In this document: positions 11,249 through 18,160 of the stretch, piece by piece
Layout of the letters: each line of letters begins with the position of its first letter
Numbering within the stretch: position 1 is the first letter of the stretch
Assembly (NCBI GenBank): GCA_016933055.1
Contig: JAFGBS010000004.1
Span: forward strand, 120,001-152,000
Direction: 5' to 3'
From: Promethearchaeota archaeon
Lineage (GTDB): Archaea; Asgardarchaeota; Lokiarchaeia; Sigyniarchaeales; Promethearchaeaceae
DNA length: 32,000 bases
Notes under the pieces: generated by a model
The model's input: only the letters and a program-made list of their open reading frames with translations
What the model was told of the DNA's origin: nothing
The model's database searches: none
Made by a program: the position numbers and the translations under genes

Positions 11249-11620
11249 ATGATAAACTTTCTCGCAGAAGAGGAACTCGAATATAAGAATTACACAATTA
11301 AATGTGGAATTACCGCTTTAGATAAAGGGTATCTTATATTAATCACCGATCAAGCACAATACGGTATTGGAGAGGTAGTTTTAGGAACACCTTCGATGCT
11401 TGAGGGTGGAAAACCTATCAGCTCACCAGCGATGATATTCGGTATTAAGCATAATATCCTTAGTAAAATTATCGCTGAACGTTCTTCAGTAAAATTCAAT
11501 CAACCATGCTTAGTGTTATTACATTTACAACAACCCGGAATACGTTCTGATATCCAAACAAAAACTGTTGTGGACTGCCTTAATAAATGTCTTGACAAAG
11601 TGACACATGCTCAGAAATAA
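11249..11620 (+). CDS. Hypothetical protein, possibly PAC3/PAC4 (proteasome assembly chaperone)-like
   Basis: 123 aa. Strand/helix pattern YLILIT...GIGEVVL...IFG...LSKIIAE...PCLVLL resembles PAC3/PAC4 by eye only. Confidence 0.6.
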   Translation: MINFLAEEELEYKNYTIKCGITALDKGYLILITDQAQYGIGEVVLGTPSMLEGGKPISSPAMIFGIKHNILSKIIAERSSVKFNQPCLVLLHLQQPGIRSDIQTKTVVDCLNKCLDKVTHAQK

Positions 11621-11765: not shown

Positions 11766-14700
11766 TTGACATACATTAAACGGATTGTGATGACAGGATT
11801 CAAATCCTTTGGGGAGAAAACGGTTTCCATTAAACTAGCACCCGGATTTACATGCATTATTGGGCCTAATGGAGCTGGCAAATCTAATGTTATAGATGCT
11901 TTATGTTTTGCATTAGGTCGAGTAAGTAAGAAAACTATGCGAGCTAAATCCCTCAGTGATCTTATCTTTGCGGGTACAAAATCCCTTAAACCAGCGACAT
12001 CAAGCATTGTAAAGTTATATTTTGATAACTCTAATAAAGAGTTTCCGTATGAAAGTGATGAAATCGAGGTCGCTCGAACTGTAAAAGTTAAAGGAGGCTC
12101 AAAATTCACATTAAACGGTCAAACTACTACCCGAGAACAAATTTTAAACATTCTTGCTCAAGCTAATATTGATCCAGACGGTTCAAATCAGTTTATACTC
12201 CAAGGGAAGATCGTTGAGTTAACCCATATGAATGTAATTGATCGCCGTACTTTTATCGAAACTTTGATCGGATTAGAGAAATACGATAGTATGAAAGAAT
12301 CTACTTTTAAGGAATTAGAGAAAGCAGATAGGGATTTAGGTAAATTTGAAGCCATCTTTAAGGAAGTAACCAATCAGTTAAAGAAATACGAAAAGGAGAA
12401 AAATGATGCCCTACGATGGAAGGAACTGGATGATAAACTAAATCAATTAAATGCGGAATTAATTGCTCTGAAAATCGAAAAATTACGCAATGAAGAAAAG
12501 GAACTTGAAAGTAAAATTGACGAGATCTCGGTCCTAATTAAAGATCTGGAACAAAAACGGGATCGACAAAAAGAAAAAATTGATCAAGAAAATTTGGTGA
12601 TGTCCCAACTAGAAGGACGTCTTAATGAGAAAAATTCAGAACGAGAAATCATTGAAGAGGCATTATCAACGTTAAAATCTGAATTATCATCTAGAGAAAC
12701 GGAAATAAAACTGGCAAAGGATAGTATCACAAAATTAGAAGAACGAAAAGAGAAACTAGTAAATCAACAGGAACCACTAGAACCCAACCAAACCTATGAT
12801 GGTTTAATTACTATCTGTAACAAGGAAATAGAAGATCTTAAAAACCAGATCAAAGAAAAACAAGCTGCTGAAGAAGAAACCTACACAACAATTAAAGAAA
12901 AAGAGTCGGAAATAGCAACCATTGATGATGAAAAAAGTAATTTAAAAGCTGAAATTTCAAGTCTGAAGCAAGAGATCTCCTCTAATAATGCAGAAATTAA
13001 AATCTTGAAAGAGAATATCAAAAAATATAAAGAAACTCTTAAAGAAACAAAAGAAGATCTGAAAAATCTGAAAAAGGGTAAAGAAAGTATTGAGGAAGCT
13101 GTTCAAGAGGTTCAACAGGAATTGGATACTATTGACGAAGGTATTCGTTCCTTAAAGAAACAAATCGAGAATGAACAAGCTAAACAAAAGGAATTAGAAA
13201 CCAGTATTTCGGAACAAGAGGGAAAAGAATCAGGCATTAAACAACAAATTTCTGATTCTCAAGCGAGAATCTCTTCATTGGAAGCCGAAGATCGTCTTTA
13301 TACTGACCGGGTAAACGATTTGGAGAAGAAAATTAAACAACTGAAAGAAGATTATGAGCGAATTTCTGGTGGAAAAAAGGTTGAAGAAGCTTATCGTGCC
13401 TTAAAGGACAAGGAAACCAAAGCGCGAGAAGAAATCACCATTATCAAGAAAAAAATAGAAGATATAACTGAAAAGCAAAAAAAGGAAGAAAATGAGAAAG
13501 AACAAAATGAACTGAAAAGGAGATCATTGGAAAACGAAGTAACCGATTATAAAACCTGGTTATCGGGTGTACAAGCTGAGATCACCTTGAATCAACGGAG
13601 TTTAAAAAATTTTCAACGGGAGAAGTCCACTTCTGAACTCACAATGAATTCTGTAGAAAGTGAAATTAGTAAATTAGAGGATCAATTGAAGATAGCAACT
13701 AAAAACGCAGAATCTTCCAAAAAACGAATTGATAATTTGGAAAGTGAACGTAAAATTCTAACCGAAAATGTGAAAACAGCAGAAGAGGAATATGAAAATT
13801 CAAAAGTAGAGTTAGATAGCATCTTACAAATTCTCACCACACTCACCCAATTTATTGATGGAGCGGTTGGGGAGATTAAATCTGATATTCAAAATGCCAG
13901 TGAAACTTCATTAAATTCCTCCATATCCAATTTTCGAGATTTATTTGATGACATCATGGAAATTATCAAACCCTTGGGAGAATTAGGAGATGACGATACC
14001 TCGAAAATAAAAAATGAAATAAATCCTATGATGGAAACCATCAAGTTGTTTACTGAAAATGTGGATGATTCCTTAAGAGATATGATTAAAGAAGTTCGAG
14101 AAGCTAACGACGTTGCAATCCAGCAATCCACTAAAAACTTCGACCAATTGATTGCAGATTTTATTGACATAATTGAGGATACAAACCTTTCTTTGAAGAA
14201 ACTAACGATGTTCAAAGCTTCTGAATTACATAATCAACTTGAAGAGGTCAATAATGAATTGCATAAGTATACGGCTAAAGCAGCGGAAGAAAATGCAGAA
14301 ATTTCGAAATTTAATACTCTTTGGGAAGCAAAACAAAATGAGTATGAAACTTTAAGAAAATCCTATCAATCTTTATTGAGTGAGACTGAGCAATTTGAAA
14401 ATAAATTGAAAAATCTTGAAAAGGACCAAATTGAAAAAGAAAAATCTCTCCAAAACGCAATCACTAAAATTAAAGAAATTGATACCAAGGAAGCGCAATC
14501 CAAGGAGAATTCAGAATCCTTTTGGAAAATACAAAAAGAATGGAATCAGAAACTGGATGAAAGTATTACTAATCTCAACACAGTACAAAATGATATAAGA
14601 GAATTACGGGATGTCCAACGCTATTTAGATGAAATCGATGATATTGAAGTAGAAATTCAAACTATTCAGAAAAACGTGGAAGGAAAGAAAAATCTCATTA

Positions 14701-16187
14701 GTACTGAAACCCAAACTATAACAACATTACGAGAGGAATTAACAAAACAAGAAAAAACTATTGAGGCATTTAAATCAAAACGAGATGATTTTTGGAAAAA
14801 ACGAGAAGAAATTGATTCTAAAATCGAACAAGAAAATCAAACTCGCAATGAAGTATTAGAACGAATGCGTGGTTTACAAAATGTTAAGCGTCTAATGGAT
14901 GAAATAAAACAATTAGAACAAGAAGAATTAGATGCAAACGCACGCATCGATGAAATTAAAGATAAAAACACAATTATTGAGGATGAAATTACCCAATTAA
15001 ATGAACAAATCCAGAAAAAAGAAGATACTCTCAAACATCTCAGACAAGAAAAAGATACTTTTCAGCAGAATCTAAAAGAGTATAGTAAACTCATAAGTGA
15101 ATTGAACGCACACTCTCAAGAAAAACAGAACCGATTAAATAATTTATCATTAATGAAGTCCCGCGATTTGGAAATCCACCAAATTGAGGAAGAAATCGAT
15201 GAAATTGATATCTCTATTGGAGAAATGGATACAGAAATTCAAGAATTGTATCAAAAAGTAACGGAAAAGGAAGAAGAACGGACCTTAAAAAATGAAGAAA
15301 TTATAAAAATAACAACCGAGCGGGATGAATCCTGGGAAAAGCAAAAACAATTCCGGGATGAACTGGGTGAAATTACCTCACAACTCTCTAAGGAAATGGC
15401 AAATCTCGACACCTCAAAAAACATACAATCTGGGATTACTAACAAAATTGAAGAACTTTTCGAGCAATCCAAGGAATTTGGAAGCATCCCTCCTGTTCCT
15501 CCCAAAGAGACGGTGACTACGATCAGTGAGAAAATTCAAAAAACGAAAAATGACAAAACTGCTTTGGAACCAGTAAACTTGAAAGCCATTGAGTATTATG
15601 ATGAAGTTCGGGAACGATTTGATGAAATTGATATGAGAAGACAAACCTTACAACGTGAAAGGAAGGCAATACTGGATTCAATTGAAAGAATAGAATTAGA
15701 AAAAACACGGACCTTCATGAAAGCCTACCATGAGATCAATCGACATTTTAGCGGTACTTTTCAAAAGTTATCCCCAGGGGGATCCGCAAAAATGATTTTG
15801 GAACGACCTGATAAACCCTTTGAAGGTGGAATTCAGATTGAGGCTCGTCCTCGAGGAAAAAAAATTTCCTCTTTAGACATTCTATCGGGTGGAGAAAAAA
15901 CGCTAGTAGCCTTATCTTTTATTTTTGCGGTTCAAACACAATTTCCTGCACCCTTTTATGTAATGGATGAAATTGATGCCGCATTAGATGGACCTAACGT
16001 GCATCGTGTTTCTACTGTGATAAAAGAATTTGCAGATCAATCCCAATTTTTGGTAATAAGTCATCGTGAAGAAAATATTATGAACGCAGAAATGATTTAT
16101 GGCGTTTCCCAAACAGACGGATTAACGTCGATTTTTAGCGTTGATTTAGAAAAAGAAAAACAACGAATCGGACAAGAAACCGAGTGA
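11766..16187 (+). CDS. smc: SMC ATPase (condensin Smc-like), 1473 aa, atypical: no recognisable hinge
   Basis: GFKSF, Walker A GPNGAGKSN, FILQG Q-loop, EPVNLKAIEYY, signature LSGGEK, Walker B/D-loop YVMDEIDAALD, VISH. TTG start preceded by GAGGT. Followed by scpA and scpB. Confidence 0.95.
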   Translation: MTYIKRIVMTGFKSFGEKTVSIKLAPGFTCIIGPNGAGKSNVIDALCFALGRVSKKTMRAKSLSDLIFAGTKSLKPATSSIVKLYFDNSNKEFPYESDEIEVARTVKVKGGSKFTLNGQTTTREQILNILAQANIDPDGSNQFILQGKIVELTHMNVIDRRTFIETLIGLEKYDSMKESTFKELEKADRDLGKFEAIFKEVTNQLKKYEKEKNDALRWKELDDKLNQLNAELIALKIEKLRNEEKELESKIDEISVLIKDLEQKRDRQKEKIDQENLVMSQLEGRLNEKNSEREIIEEALSTLKSELSSRETEIKLAKDSITKLEERKEKLVNQQEPLEPNQTYDGLITICNKEIEDLKNQIKEKQAAEEETYTTIKEKESEIATIDDEKSNLKAEISSLKQEISSNNAEIKILKENIKKYKETLKETKEDLKNLKKGKESIEEAVQEVQQELDTIDEGIRSLKKQIENEQAKQKELETSISEQEGKESGIKQQISDSQARISSLEAEDRLYTDRVNDLEKKIKQLKEDYERISGGKKVEEAYRALKDKETKAREEITIIKKKIEDITEKQKKEENEKEQNELKRRSLENEVTDYKTWLSGVQAEITLNQRSLKNFQREKSTSELTMNSVESEISKLEDQLKIATKNAESSKKRIDNLESERKILTENVKTAEEEYENSKVELDSILQILTTLTQFIDGAVGEIKSDIQNASETSLNSSISNFRDLFDDIMEIIKPLGELGDDDTSKIKNEINPMMETIKLFTENVDDSLRDMIKEVREANDVAIQQSTKNFDQLIADFIDIIEDTNLSLKKLTMFKASELHNQLEEVNNELHKYTAKAAEENAEISKFNTLWEAKQNEYETLRKSYQSLLSETEQFENKLKNLEKDQIEKEKSLQNAITKIKEIDTKEAQSKENSESFWKIQKEWNQKLDESITNLNTVQNDIRELRDVQRYLDEIDDIEVEIQTIQKNVEGKKNLISTETQTITTLREELTKQEKTIEAFKSKRDDFWKKREEIDSKIEQENQTRNEVLERMRGLQNVKRLMDEIKQLEQEELDANARIDEIKDKNTIIEDEITQLNEQIQKKEDTLKHLRQEKDTFQQNLKEYSKLISELNAHSQEKQNRLNNLSLMKSRDLEIHQIEEEIDEIDISIGEMDTEIQELYQKVTEKEEERTLKNEEIIKITTERDESWEKQKQFRDELGEITSQLSKEMANLDTSKNIQSGITNKIEELFEQSKEFGSIPPVPPKETVTTISEKIQKTKNDKTALEPVNLKAIEYYDEVRERFDEIDMRRQTLQRERKAILDSIERIELEKTRTFMKAYHEINRHFSGTFQKLSPGGSAKMILERPDKPFEGGIQIEARPRGKKISSLDILSGGEKTLVALSFIFAVQTQFPAPFYVMDEIDAALDGPNVHRVSTVIKEFADQSQFLVISHREENIMNAEMIYGVSQTDGLTSIFSVDLEKEKQRIGQETE

Positions 16188-16194
16188 TTTGCCT

Positions 16195-17211
16195 ATGGGT
16201 AAAAAAACAACAACTAGTTCAAATTCAAAAAATTCTGCAGATTCTAATCAGTCTGGGACTAGTAATGACGCAGATTCAAAGAATAAAGAAAATCCTACCG
16301 GGAAAACTAAATCTTCGAAAAAGAACGTAAAAAAACATTCTGAAAATAACTCTGTAGAAATGAATGAAAAATCAGACAAAATAGTAAAAGAAGTAATAGA
16401 AGCTACCAATGATATTATAGAGAAAAAACAAAAAGAAGCAGAAGCAGAGGGGAAAACCGAACTTCCCGAGAAATTTTGGCAACAAGACGAGTGGAGAGTT
16501 TTATTAGATCCCAATCTTGTGAAATCCGATCAGATTACACAATATGATCTCTCGGCATTAATTACAGAATTCACAAATAAAATGTTAACTCAAGATTTAG
16601 TGGATTTCCGAATAAGTGGTATGGCGATCTATTCTACGGCAAAATTACATCATCGGAAAATACGAGATGTAATTGATGAAGAAGAACAGATTCAAATCCG
16701 CGAACTCCGGGATAAAGCGAGGAGAGAGATTCCTAAGGCAATGCCACAACCAATAAGGGAACCTCTTAAAATCGCTACCCGAGATGAATTATTCGATGCC
16801 ATGCGTGCTGCCATTATAGAGACCATGCAAAAACGGGAATTATTACGAAGAAAACGTATTGCACGGGAAAGTAAAAAAGCGGAATTAAAGATAGTTAAAT
16901 CGACTAACAAGTTACCTCTGGAAATTTTAAAACACATAATGGGTAAAGAGCGAACCGTAGAACAAACTTTGGATTATTGGTTTGATAAAATACGTTCACA
17001 AATTAAAAATAACGGAGGTAAACAGACAACTTACGATGAAATGTGTGAAAAAGTTATTGCTGCTGAAATTATAGATTCTTACGGGCAACGTTTGAAAAAT
17101 ATTGAATTGTTTCTGTCTCTGCTTTTTTTAAGTACAGCGGGACGTATAATGATTGACCAAGAAACCGATTTTGATGTAATAACCATTACAATACCACGAC
17201 ATATTTTATAG
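16195..17211 (+). CDS. scpA: Kleisin ScpA with long low-complexity N-terminal extension
   Basis: N-terminal domain YDLSALITEF...DFRISGMAIYSTAKLHHRK; TRDELFDAM; C-terminal winged helix LFLSLLFLSTAGRIMIDQETDFDVI. Directly downstream of smc; alternative TTG start at 16189. Confidence 0.85.
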   Translation: MGKKTTTSSNSKNSADSNQSGTSNDADSKNKENPTGKTKSSKKNVKKHSENNSVEMNEKSDKIVKEVIEATNDIIEKKQKEAEAEGKTELPEKFWQQDEWRVLLDPNLVKSDQITQYDLSALITEFTNKMLTQDLVDFRISGMAIYSTAKLHHRKIRDVIDEEEQIQIRELRDKARREIPKAMPQPIREPLKIATRDELFDAMRAAIIETMQKRELLRRKRIARESKKAELKIVKSTNKLPLEILKHIMGKERTVEQTLDYWFDKIRSQIKNNGGKQTTYDEMCEKVIAAEIIDSYGQRLKNIELFLSLLFLSTAGRIMIDQETDFDVITITIPRHIL

Positions 17212-17221
17212 GGGTATATAT

Positions 17222-18160
17222 ATGACGGAAAGAAAAAAAGAAGAACAAGTCAAACATGAATCTGAATCTAAAGAAGATAAAATAGAGGTATCATCACAAA
17301 ACGAAGATGTGCAAGTCGAATCAAAAATGGATATTTCAATTAACCGACCTGATGCTATAGAGCGCGTGGGTGAGGAATCCCTAGAAGAAGATAGAGAATT
17401 AAGTTCTGAAGATATTGAAAATATTGACTCTTTATTAGATAATCTTGAGGAAGATGAAGAGAATTCAATAGAACGAGAATTAGATAAAGAGCAAGACGAT
17501 GAGGTTAAGGTAATATCAGTAAAAGACTTAACCGAAAAGACAATTAAACGTAATACGATTGAAGCTGCTTTATTAGCGGCACAGAGACCAATCTCCATAG
17601 AAGAGATCAGCATTAAATTGGATTTATCAAAAACTGAAATCGAGAAGCTCATACAAGAACTAGCAGAAGACTATATGGATCGAACAACGGCAATCGAAAT
17701 CGTACAAATTGGTGAGGGATATGCAATGCAAATCAAGCCTGAGTATACTGAGAAAATCGTAAAATTTGCCTCGGGAGGTTTAATTCCAAAAGCAGTTATG
17801 CGAACTCTTACCATAATCGCTGTGAAGCAACCTTTATTAAAATCCTTATTGGTAAAAATGAGAGGGAGTACAGCATATGAGCACTGTAAATTTCTAATTG
17901 ACCGTGGATATGTTACATCATATAATAAAGGACGATCAAGCGTTTTGGAAACCACAGATCAATTTGCAGACACTTTTGGGCTATCTAGAGACACCGAAAC
18001 CTTGAAAAAACAACTTATTGATCAATTAGACATTCAAGCTATTGAAGAATCCCCAGAAGAAAACGAGGATTCAGAATCACATTATGAGATTGAAGAAAAA
18101 ACAGAGCTGCAAGAATCAGAATTATCTGATCCTAATGACTTATCAAAGGAAAAAGAGTAA
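17222..18160 (+). CDS. scpB: KITE subunit ScpB with acidic N- and C-terminal extensions
   Basis: IEAALLAAQRPIS, IEIVQIGEGYAMQIKPEY, TLTIIAVKQP, MRG, TTDQFADTFGL. Confidence 0.93.
   Translation: MTERKKEEQVKHESESKEDKIEVSSQNEDVQVESKMDISINRPDAIERVGEESLEEDRELSSEDIENIDSLLDNLEEDEENSIERELDKEQDDEVKVISVKDLTEKTIKRNTIEAALLAAQRPISIEEISIKLDLSKTEIEKLIQELAEDYMDRTTAIEIVQIGEGYAMQIKPEYTEKIVKFASGGLIPKAVMRTLTIIAVKQPLLKSLLVKMRGSTAYEHCKFLIDRGYVTSYNKGRSSVLETTDQFADTFGLSRDTETLKKQLIDQLDIQAIEESPEENEDSESHYEIEEKTELQESELSDPNDLSKEKE

Follow-up and report, generated by a model that had tools for sequence, protein, structure and literature searches.

A long Smc of Lokiarchaeia with an all-helical apex in the position of the hinge

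The hinge of SMC proteins is regarded as universal: it provides the constitutive dimer interface, binds DNA and, according to several models, acts as a gate for DNA. A locus in the genome of a Promethearchaeota archaeon (Asgardarchaeota; Lokiarchaeia; Sigyniarchaeales) raises the question of what stands at the far end of an Smc that has no hinge, and how two such chains might be held together. The window analysed here is a stretch of 32,000 nucleotides (assembly GCA_016933055.1, contig JAFGBS010000004.1, positions 120,001 to 152,000, forward strand), to which all coordinates refer unless another contig or locus is named. Within it, three tightly packed genes in one orientation (11766-18160, +) encode an Smc of 1473 residues, hereafter the long Smc, followed by a divergent kleisin and ScpB. 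A preliminary description, made from the sequence alone, had reported an smc-scpA-scpB operon whose Smc has this length and canonical heads, with neither a hinge nor a zinc hook, and had proposed an Asgard host. The length of the open reading frame (ORF; 11766-16187, +) holds, and the homologues are named Promethearchaeota or Lokiarchaeota, in keeping with the proposed host.

Heads, arms and apex of the long Smc

The smc gene (11766-16187, +, stop codon included) opens at a TTG that aligns with the ATG of the orthologue from Candidatus (Ca.) Harpocratesius. Pfam SMC_N covers residues 3-1451 of the product (E 7e-41), and the whole protein scores 587.7 bits with NCBIfam TIGR02168, over the cut-off of 567.35, and 622.7 bits with the archaeal-type model TIGR02169, under the cut-off of 729.4. 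The N-terminal half of the ATPase head (residues 1-170; 11766-12275, +) carries Walker A (GPNGAGKS), K39, R59 and the Q-loop residue Q146, and the C-terminal half (residues 1271-1473; 15576-16184, +) carries the signature LSGGEK, Walker B (FYVMDEID), the D-loop and H1433. All of these motifs are intact and invariant in 14 orthologues, as expected of the canonical heads described earlier. The closest solved structures to the heads are those of Pyrococcus Smc (E 4e-116 for 5xei, to 5e-94), followed by Bacillus subtilis and Geobacillus Smc (E 2e-69 to 2e-60) and, in a third tier behind bacterial Smc, by eukaryotic SMC2, SMC3 and SMC1.

Pfam searches with the whole protein and with residues 500-950 gave no match at E<=1 to PF06470 (SMC_hinge), Rad50_zn_hook or the MukB hinge, which upholds the claim of a missing hinge. 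Four orthologues of the long Smc also lack a PF06470 match at E<=1, and as a positive control the canonical Smc paralogue of a relative matched this family at 5e-32. In the NCBIfam alignments, residues 3-508 correspond to positions 1-506 of the TIGR02169 profile and residues 963-1461 to positions 680-1181 of the TIGR02168 profile; the alignments thus jump the profile's hinge block (about 170 residues), whose place is taken by about 455 residues. Cysteine occurs only at residues 30, 47 and 351, the last being the lone cysteine of the arm region, and neither CxxC nor G-x6-G-x3-GG is found anywhere in the 1473 residues, so that the reported absence of a zinc hook and of the glycine motif also stands. 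Rad50 and ASRP models reach 70-131 bits on this protein against cut-offs of 300-1087, and RecN models 23-29 bits against cut-offs above 400. The long Smc is thus an Smc by descent, as judged from its heads, its phylogeny and its kleisin and kite partners; in architecture it departs from the hinge-bearing form, and it is not a zinc-hook protein.

In the position of the hinge lies an acidic, all-helical apex (residues 685-825; 13818-14240, +), set apart by its conservation, distribution, charge, hydrophobicity and predicted folds. Across the 14 full-length orthologues, conservation peaks locally at about residues 685-825, with a mean of 0.69 for the apex vs 0.57-0.66 for the arms, and the apex alignment is nearly gap-free down to 24% identity. 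With 13 K+R against 27 D+E the apex has a net charge of -14, which, together with its all-helical AlphaFold2 model, agrees with the acidic helical segment first noted at about residues 680-825; its K+R share is 13/141, compared with about 16-20% in the arms. The fraction of hydrophobic residues is 0.36 in the apex vs 0.26-0.27 in the arms, and invariantly hydrophobic positions make up 33% of the apex vs 16-24% of the arms. These hydrophobic residues follow an a/d/e-like spacing over four segments of about 28 residues (683-709, 713-740, 749-778 and 782-810), a content that exceeds the need of a two-stranded coiled coil.

Local self-alignment divides the apex into two repeat units, the first at residues 693-734 (13842-13967, +; a helix, a short break near 710-712 and a second helix) and the second at residues 762-804 (14049-14177, +). 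The alignment of the two scores 61, about 6.5 standard deviations above shuffled sequences (mean 27.3, standard deviation 5.2, maximum 49). Between the units lies a predicted tip loop rich in Gly and Asp (residues 741-748, GDDDTSKI; 13986-14009, +), the sole non-helical stretch of more than three residues in both structural models. An AlphaFold2 model of residues 560-950, built from a 27-row alignment, is all-helical, with a pLDDT score (predicted local distance difference test) above 90 in the arms and of 60-70 in the apex, and contains short helix breaks at 710-712 and 779-781 and a loop at 741-748. When the apex was folded alone (31 rows), the result was one alpha-hairpin with a pLDDT of 76, and the remaining four models scored 44-65. 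A two-copy prediction for residues 640-870 from the 27-row alignment gave a score of 0.00 and a pLDDT of 55, which is evidence neither for nor against a dimer.

Structure searches returned no hinge. Foldseek comparison of the 391-residue model with the PDB yielded helical hairpins of the generic antiparallel kind only, without any hinge fold, the best matches being the coiled coils of MukB, Rad50 and Smc. VIA-align comparison of the apex model with 48,161 chains found neither a hinge nor a specific fold relative (best Z 11.2, below the helical noise mark of about 13). The hairpins matched in these searches include the MukB elbow, the Rad50 coiled coil, chemoreceptors, YscO and FliJ. A profile of residues 560-950 searched against PDB sequences found only coiled-coil look-alikes, led by 5xg2, a fragment of Smc coiled coil and not a hinge, and an ESM Atlas feature search with the apex found only unnamed clusters at 0.86-0.87, under the trust level. 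Distant ESM Atlas rows annotated with Rad50_zn_hook or SMC_hinge (0.76-0.79) were taken as chance.

The apex is carried on long arms. The N-terminal arm (residues 171-684; 12276-13817, +) contains tandem modules of about 100 residues (353-457, 458-554 and 555-650), and the C-terminal arm (residues 826-1270; 14241-15575, +) tandem modules of about 90 residues (895-984, 985-1074 and 1075-1164). In segment alignments scored against shuffles, successive modules gave z 9.4 (353-457/458-554) and 4.0 (458-554/555-650) in the N-terminal arm, and 6.9 (895-984/985-1074) and 7.3 (985-1074/1075-1164) in the C-terminal arm. Measured to the apex boundaries, the two arms span 514 and 445 residues respectively (about 450-570). 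The AlphaFold2 model of residues 560-950 shows a long intramolecular antiparallel coiled coil of two long helices, with pLDDT above 90 at residues 560-670 and 820-940. In B. subtilis Smc the arms have a functional period of 91 residues and a superhelical period of about 99; the arms of natural Smc proteins fall into length classes about 100 residues apart, with modes at 238, 341 and 515, and natural and engineered lengths are tolerated in steps of about 91-100 residues (PMC5344682). The modules of the long Smc (about 90-105 residues) come close to this period, so that the lengthening looks like the addition of whole periods, which would keep head and tip in phase. Midway along the N-terminal arm, an SGGK sequence (residues 534-537; 13365-13376) has S534 and G536 invariant and K537 conserved in at least 90% of the 14 orthologues, and may mark a point, for example an elbow or joint, where the coiled coil is interrupted.

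Partner genes and distribution across the order

The genes of the operon are separated by gaps of 7-10 nucleotides. The last encodes a clear ScpB, or kite subunit (312 residues; 17222-18160, +; PF04079 at 7.1e-34; TIGR00281 at 94.4 bits, cut-off 89.2), which carries an acidic N-terminal extension of about 110 residues and an acidic C-terminal extension; no other ScpB was found in the genome. The middle gene encodes a protein of 338 residues (16195-17211, +). Its ORF opens at TTG 16189 (340 residues); the start is most likely ATG 16195, because the identical protein on record has 338 residues. PF02616 matches its C-terminal part at 15.9 bits, below the cut-off, and no Pfam family matches it above threshold. 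All 66 homologues are Promethearchaeota- or Lokiarchaeota-type records, among them P. syntrophicum DSAG12_00819, and several are named 'Rec8/ScpA/Scc1 (kleisin family)' by the Joint Genome Institute (JGI). A profile of 24 homologues matched the PDB best at the archaeal ScpA N-terminal domain 6ivh (E 0.011, profile positions 109-216) and then at Scc1/ScpA C-terminal winged helices (E 0.03-0.3, positions 278-340), in collinear order, and 7 of the 24 reach PF02616. On these weak but collinear matches and on the names of its homologues, the gene is accepted, with less assurance than its neighbours, as a divergent kleisin of the ScpA/Rec8/Scc1 family. The three-gene operon of the preliminary description is thus retained, its ScpB on clear and its kleisin on weaker evidence. 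The same operon is kept in Ca. Harpocratesius, with a 1487-residue Smc, a 366-residue kleisin homologue and a 331-residue ScpB.

The first 95 or so residues of the kleisin form a basic low-complexity tail rich in Lys, Ser and Asn. At the position of this tail, as many as roughly one in three of the 24 homologues carry SAP, HeH/Ish1, Rho_N or helix-hairpin-helix modules, DNA-binding-type domains better known from eukaryotic nuclear proteins, and the tail may likewise be a DNA-contacting extension. The kleisin relatives with such N-terminal modules include P0080, P0094, P0098, P0099 and P0102.

A search of 400 genomes of the phylum with the apex (query residues 660-850) matched 130 of the 153 genomes of the window's own order: all 13 of the window's family (f1), the single genome of f2, 114 of the 135 of the largest family (f3) and two of the four of f4. 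The match almost always lies inside an open frame of 1480-1510 residues without internal stops. Three single-contig genomes are among the carriers, namely G142, G134 (Ca. Harpocratesius repetitus) and G137 (6.04 Mb). This survey of orthologues, which the preliminary description had proposed as a check, finds the same architecture in 130 genomes. Outside the order, the same search gave only noise-level matches and two contaminated-looking bins assigned to other Asgard classes, G063 (C70:3607-4176, 92% identity) and G039 (three partial ORFs, 36-38%), in which misbinned contigs of Lokiarchaeia seem more likely than gene transfer. Among 1.84 billion representative proteins the apex found only 30 matches, and every hit checked for domain content was either a long Smc or a protein of a second class, of about 1000 residues, described below. 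Public records name the long Smc 'chromosome segregation protein SMC' or 'AAA family ATPase'.

The genes near smc are housekeeping ones, encoding eRF1, phosphopantothenate synthetase and archaeosine TGT. Just upstream of smc, an ORF of 123 residues (11249-11620, +) has a sub-threshold match (E 1.2e-4; 22.2 bits, cut-off 27) to PF21758, a bacterial proteasome-assembling-chaperone-like family.

Paralogues, origin and a second class of apex proteins

A search of the 400 genomes with PF06470, the hinge family, showed that a canonical Smc of about 1200 residues with a strong hinge match (E 1e-25 to 1e-35) is also present in many members of the order; in others the sole match is weak (1e-4 to 1e-10) and comes from an SMC5/6-like protein. 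The canonical Smc of Ca. Harpocratesius has 1206 residues and a hinge match of 5e-32 and is followed by its own ScpB of 196 residues. P. syntrophicum MK-D1, Ca. Harpocratesius and similar relatives contain the long Smc, a canonical hinge SMC of about 1200 residues and an SMC5/6-like one, so that organisms of the Ca. Harpocratesius type have three SMC complexes.

As to a second hinge-bearing Smc in the present genome, a point raised in the preliminary description, an SMC5/6-like protein with a weak hinge is present, and no canonical Smc was found in the assembly (91% complete), nor in a second genome of the same genus. The PF06470 search gave no strong hinge match in any genome of the genera g19, g20 or g21, and when five g19 and g20 genomes of 99-100% completeness were compared with a canonical Smc, nothing matched better than the long Smc and the SMC5/6-like protein. 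Both this genome and the majority of genera in the largest family have likely lost the canonical copy. For most carriers the hinge-less form is thus the sole condensin-type SMC recognised, which speaks for an essential role at the chromosome.

A second SMC locus of this genome (G000 contig C5, L010:3275-9130, -) encodes the SMC5/6-like protein, which has 1128 residues and a weak hinge match of 18-23 bits. It is flanked by genes for proteins of 406, 237 and 178 residues, the last of them winged-helix and Lrs14-like, which are probably its kleisin and kite set. On contig C17 of the same genome (L011:3557-7132, -), an ORF of 1191 residues joins an Mre11-type phosphoesterase (residues 5-269) to a Rad50/SbcC-type ATPase (from about residue 420) and looks like an Mre11-Rad50 fusion; a HerA-type helicase gene adjoins it (L011 7136-8770, -).

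A tree of head domains (44 sequences, 460 columns, LG+C20), with the SMC5/6-like clade as outgroup, places the long Smc on the canonical side and not with the SMC5/6-like proteins of the same genomes. Support is 100/100 for the long clade, 100/99 for the canonical Smc clade of the order and 100/100 for the SMC5/6-like clade. Branches inside the long clade are short and the heads evolve slowly, which implies strong constraint. Its sister, at 98/94 and with a long-branch warning, is a 1202-residue Smc from another Asgard class (f16, P0116), whose N-terminal head is 43% identical to that of the long Smc and whose hinge is shortened but recognisable (GDVFYSNGIIYGG; partial PF06470 match, E 0.01). 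An approximately unbiased (AU) test did not reject duplication within the order, in which the long Smc would share one clade with the canonical Smc of the order (p 0.083). Under either placement the long Smc descends from a hinge-bearing ancestor, and its helical apex is a replacement at least as old as the common ancestor of the order. The long Smc is thus best described, from its sequence relationships, as a distinct paralogue lineage spread across one order of Lokiarchaeia. Of the earlier interpretation, the unusual architecture stands, with Smc heads, no hinge or hook and longer arms; what the sequence alone could not show is that this is a separate paralogue, and not 'the' Smc with its hinge deleted.

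The apex also occurs outside Smc. Eight apex hits of 620-1180 residues (six of them of 920-1180) have the domain twice in tandem close to the N-terminus; a non-helical-looking region, a coiled coil and a tail rich in Lys and resembling histone H1 follow. Those of about 920-1180 residues, which have no Pfam match, include L026:4997-8122:- of Ca. Harpocratesius and P0023, P0025, P0026, P0035, P0037 and P0043; a genome search located these class-2 proteins in some f1 genomes, and neither in this genome nor in the largest family. An apex hidden Markov model matches the first copies at E 1e-49 to 1e-61 and the second at 1e-8 to 1e-20, values that are partly circular since its alignment included most of these proteins. 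A phmmer search with the apex of the window alone finds them at E 5e-17 to 1e-8. The apex is thus an autonomous module, which weakly favours a compact fold and would allow heterotypic contacts.

Role of the apex and competing explanations

We propose that two Smc chains are joined by a multi-helix bundle formed by the apex, which so replaces the hinge as the constitutive distal dimer, a reading to which we assign a probability of roughly 60%. In this proposal, the long Smc would be the Smc subunit of a paralogous kleisin-kite complex of the ScpAB type, with ordinary ABC-ATPase head halves, arms extended by tandem duplication of coiled-coil modules of about 90-105 residues, and the alpha/beta hinge exchanged for some 140 all-helical residues in two helix-turn-helix units. 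The bundle would take over the one indispensable job of the hinge, that of holding two arms together far from the heads. A closed Smc2-kleisin-ScpB2 ring or rod would still form and serve as the chromosomal condensin. The DNA contacts of a basic hinge would be absent from the acidic tip, and may come from the heads and from the basic N-terminal extension of the kleisin.

Two precedents support the apex as a dimer module. B. subtilis grows normally when the hinge of its Smc is exchanged for a Rad50 zinc hook, so that the dimerisation domain's fold does not matter in that case (PMC5344682), and RecN dimerises through three apical helices (PMC4255302). RecN, an SMC-superfamily member that forms its dimer interface from alpha-helices at the apex, with neither hinge nor zinc, is the nearest parallel to the mechanism proposed here; it differs in being bacterial, in having a coiled coil about a quarter as long and in lacking kleisin and kite partners, and no sequence relation to RecN was found among the apex matches in the 1.84 billion representatives. 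The engineered Smc(Zh) likewise indicates that the hinge fold is replaceable if dimerisation is kept; that construct is artificial, whereas the long Smc is natural. Rad50/SbcC and the archaeal ASRP/ClsN/Sph proteins are also hingeless coiled-coil hairpins that dimerise at a small apex. They differ in their CxxC zinc hook (PMC9389158) and Mre11 partner, where the long Smc has Smc heads and a kleisin and kite.

Set against canonical Smc-ScpAB (Pyrococcus, B. subtilis; TIGR02168/TIGR02169; 5xei, 5xns, 3zgx), the long Smc has the same heads with all motifs, kleisin and ScpB genes directly downstream, and a head-proximal antiparallel arm of about 340 residues that aligns to the Smc profile. It departs from that system in having no alpha/beta hinge, about 455 residues of extra coiled coil and helical apex, and arms about 1.4-1.6 times as long; its ScpB and kleisin, moreover, bear long charged extensions. 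The canonical Smc of the order (for example the 1206-residue protein of Ca. Harpocratesius repetitus) occurs in the same organisms in many relatives and belongs to the same head family, with 28-37% identity over heads and arms, and is distinguished by a strong hinge, a normal length and a clade of its own. The reduced-hinge Smc of f16, on the branch nearest to the long clade, nevertheless has a normal length of 1202 residues and a shortened hinge.

Several points weigh against this proposal. The two monomer models disagree, one breaking at 710-712 and 779-781 and the other being an unbroken hairpin save for a tip loop at residues 741-744, and confidence in the apex is moderate in both (pLDDT 60-70 in context and 76 alone). 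The wide hydrophobic seam could equally be met within one chain, the tip being folded back as a four-helix bundle. The kleisin assignment is based on sub-threshold matches, and with an assembly of 91% completeness it is likely, though not proven, that the canonical Smc has been lost. In relatives that keep canonical Smc-ScpB, the long complex may be more specialised.

The best-surviving alternative develops the second of these points: the apex would be a four-helix-bundle cap folded in cis, with no distal dimer, and the only links between the two Smc subunits would be their ATP-engaged heads, the bridging kleisin and arms zipped together laterally, leaving the far end open. The four near-equal segments of about 28 residues, split by two short breaks and one loop, suit such a cap, as does the two-fold repeat, which puts the breaks at equivalent positions. 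The tandem occurrence of the autonomous domain near the N-terminus of otherwise unrelated proteins of about 1000 residues, where no end of a long antiparallel arm is possible, points the same way. Loss of hinge dimerisation, however, inactivates B. subtilis Smc (PMC5344682), strongly conserved exposed positions of the apex suggest an interaction surface, and the apex folded alone is an extended hairpin and not a bundle. We consider the cap unlikely.

In another alternative, the apex would be chiefly a docking module for other proteins, with the class-2 proteins among the candidates, and heterotypic helical bundling would tether the tip to chromatin or to another structure. The domain shared between these proteins and the long Smc (by phmmer as well as by the partly circular model scores), their basic C-terminal tails and the acidic character of the apex, which makes DNA binding improbable, are all compatible with docking. 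Yet the class-2 partner is confined to some f1 genomes and is absent from this genome and from the largest family, both of which have the long Smc. Since most carriers lack it, binding this partner cannot be the main function of the apex, and we regard a chiefly docking role as very unlikely.

There is only a slender chance that the long Smc is no chromosomal condensin at all and belongs to a specialised SMC-like system, for example in foreign-DNA defence, repair or a cytoskeletal role, with Smc-like heads. Relatives with up to three SMC complexes leave room for specialisation, and the tip and the kleisin and ScpB extensions are unusual. Against this, the protein is the sole Smc1-4-type protein in most carriers and nearly universal in the order, its heads evolve slowly, its neighbours are the housekeeping genes named above, its partners are a kleisin and ScpB with no nuclease, and it scores as Smc (588-623 bits with the NCBIfam Smc models vs 42-131 with those for Rad50, ASRP and arcadin-4). 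Finally, a misassembly or pseudogene that lost the hinge by local error is effectively ruled out by the 130 matching genomes, three of them single-contig, by the lack of internal stops and by conservation of the apex down to 24-30% identity.

In the literature covered, which did not extend to subscription-only papers, we found no description of this hinge-less long-Smc architecture of Asgard archaea, and the only 'hinge-less SMC' encountered was a marine metagenomic clade, apparently actinobacterial (PMC12153180). That clade is bacterial; the long Smc is archaeal and accompanied by kleisin and ScpB genes. A preprint on SMC evolution cites an SMC-kleisin-kite operon of P. syntrophicum (genes 810/809/808) as a condensin/cohesin-related complex, with the hinge unmentioned (bioRxiv 10.1101/2024.01.07.573240, supplementary text). 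This is most likely the long-Smc operon, because the kleisin homologue is DSAG12_00819.

A whole Asgard order, including the cultured P. syntrophicum MK-D1, has an Smc-kleisin-ScpB complex with a purely helical tip, a natural counterpart of the engineered hinge-to-zinc-hook swap that could reveal which functions of the hinge loop extrusion or DNA entrapment truly requires. That the complex is a natural kleisin-kite SMC motor without any hinge- or hook-like distal dimer, its apex being a cis cap or a docking site, appears quite unlikely. If the distal dimer were truly absent, the only condensin-type SMC of most of these archaea would work without a closed Smc-Smc ring, contradicting the view that SMC function requires a constitutive distal dimer together with a gate or a DNA site at the hinge. 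The finding also bears on how eukaryotic SMC complexes arose from Asgard ancestors, since reconstructions use what is most likely this operon without noting that its Smc lacks the hinge.

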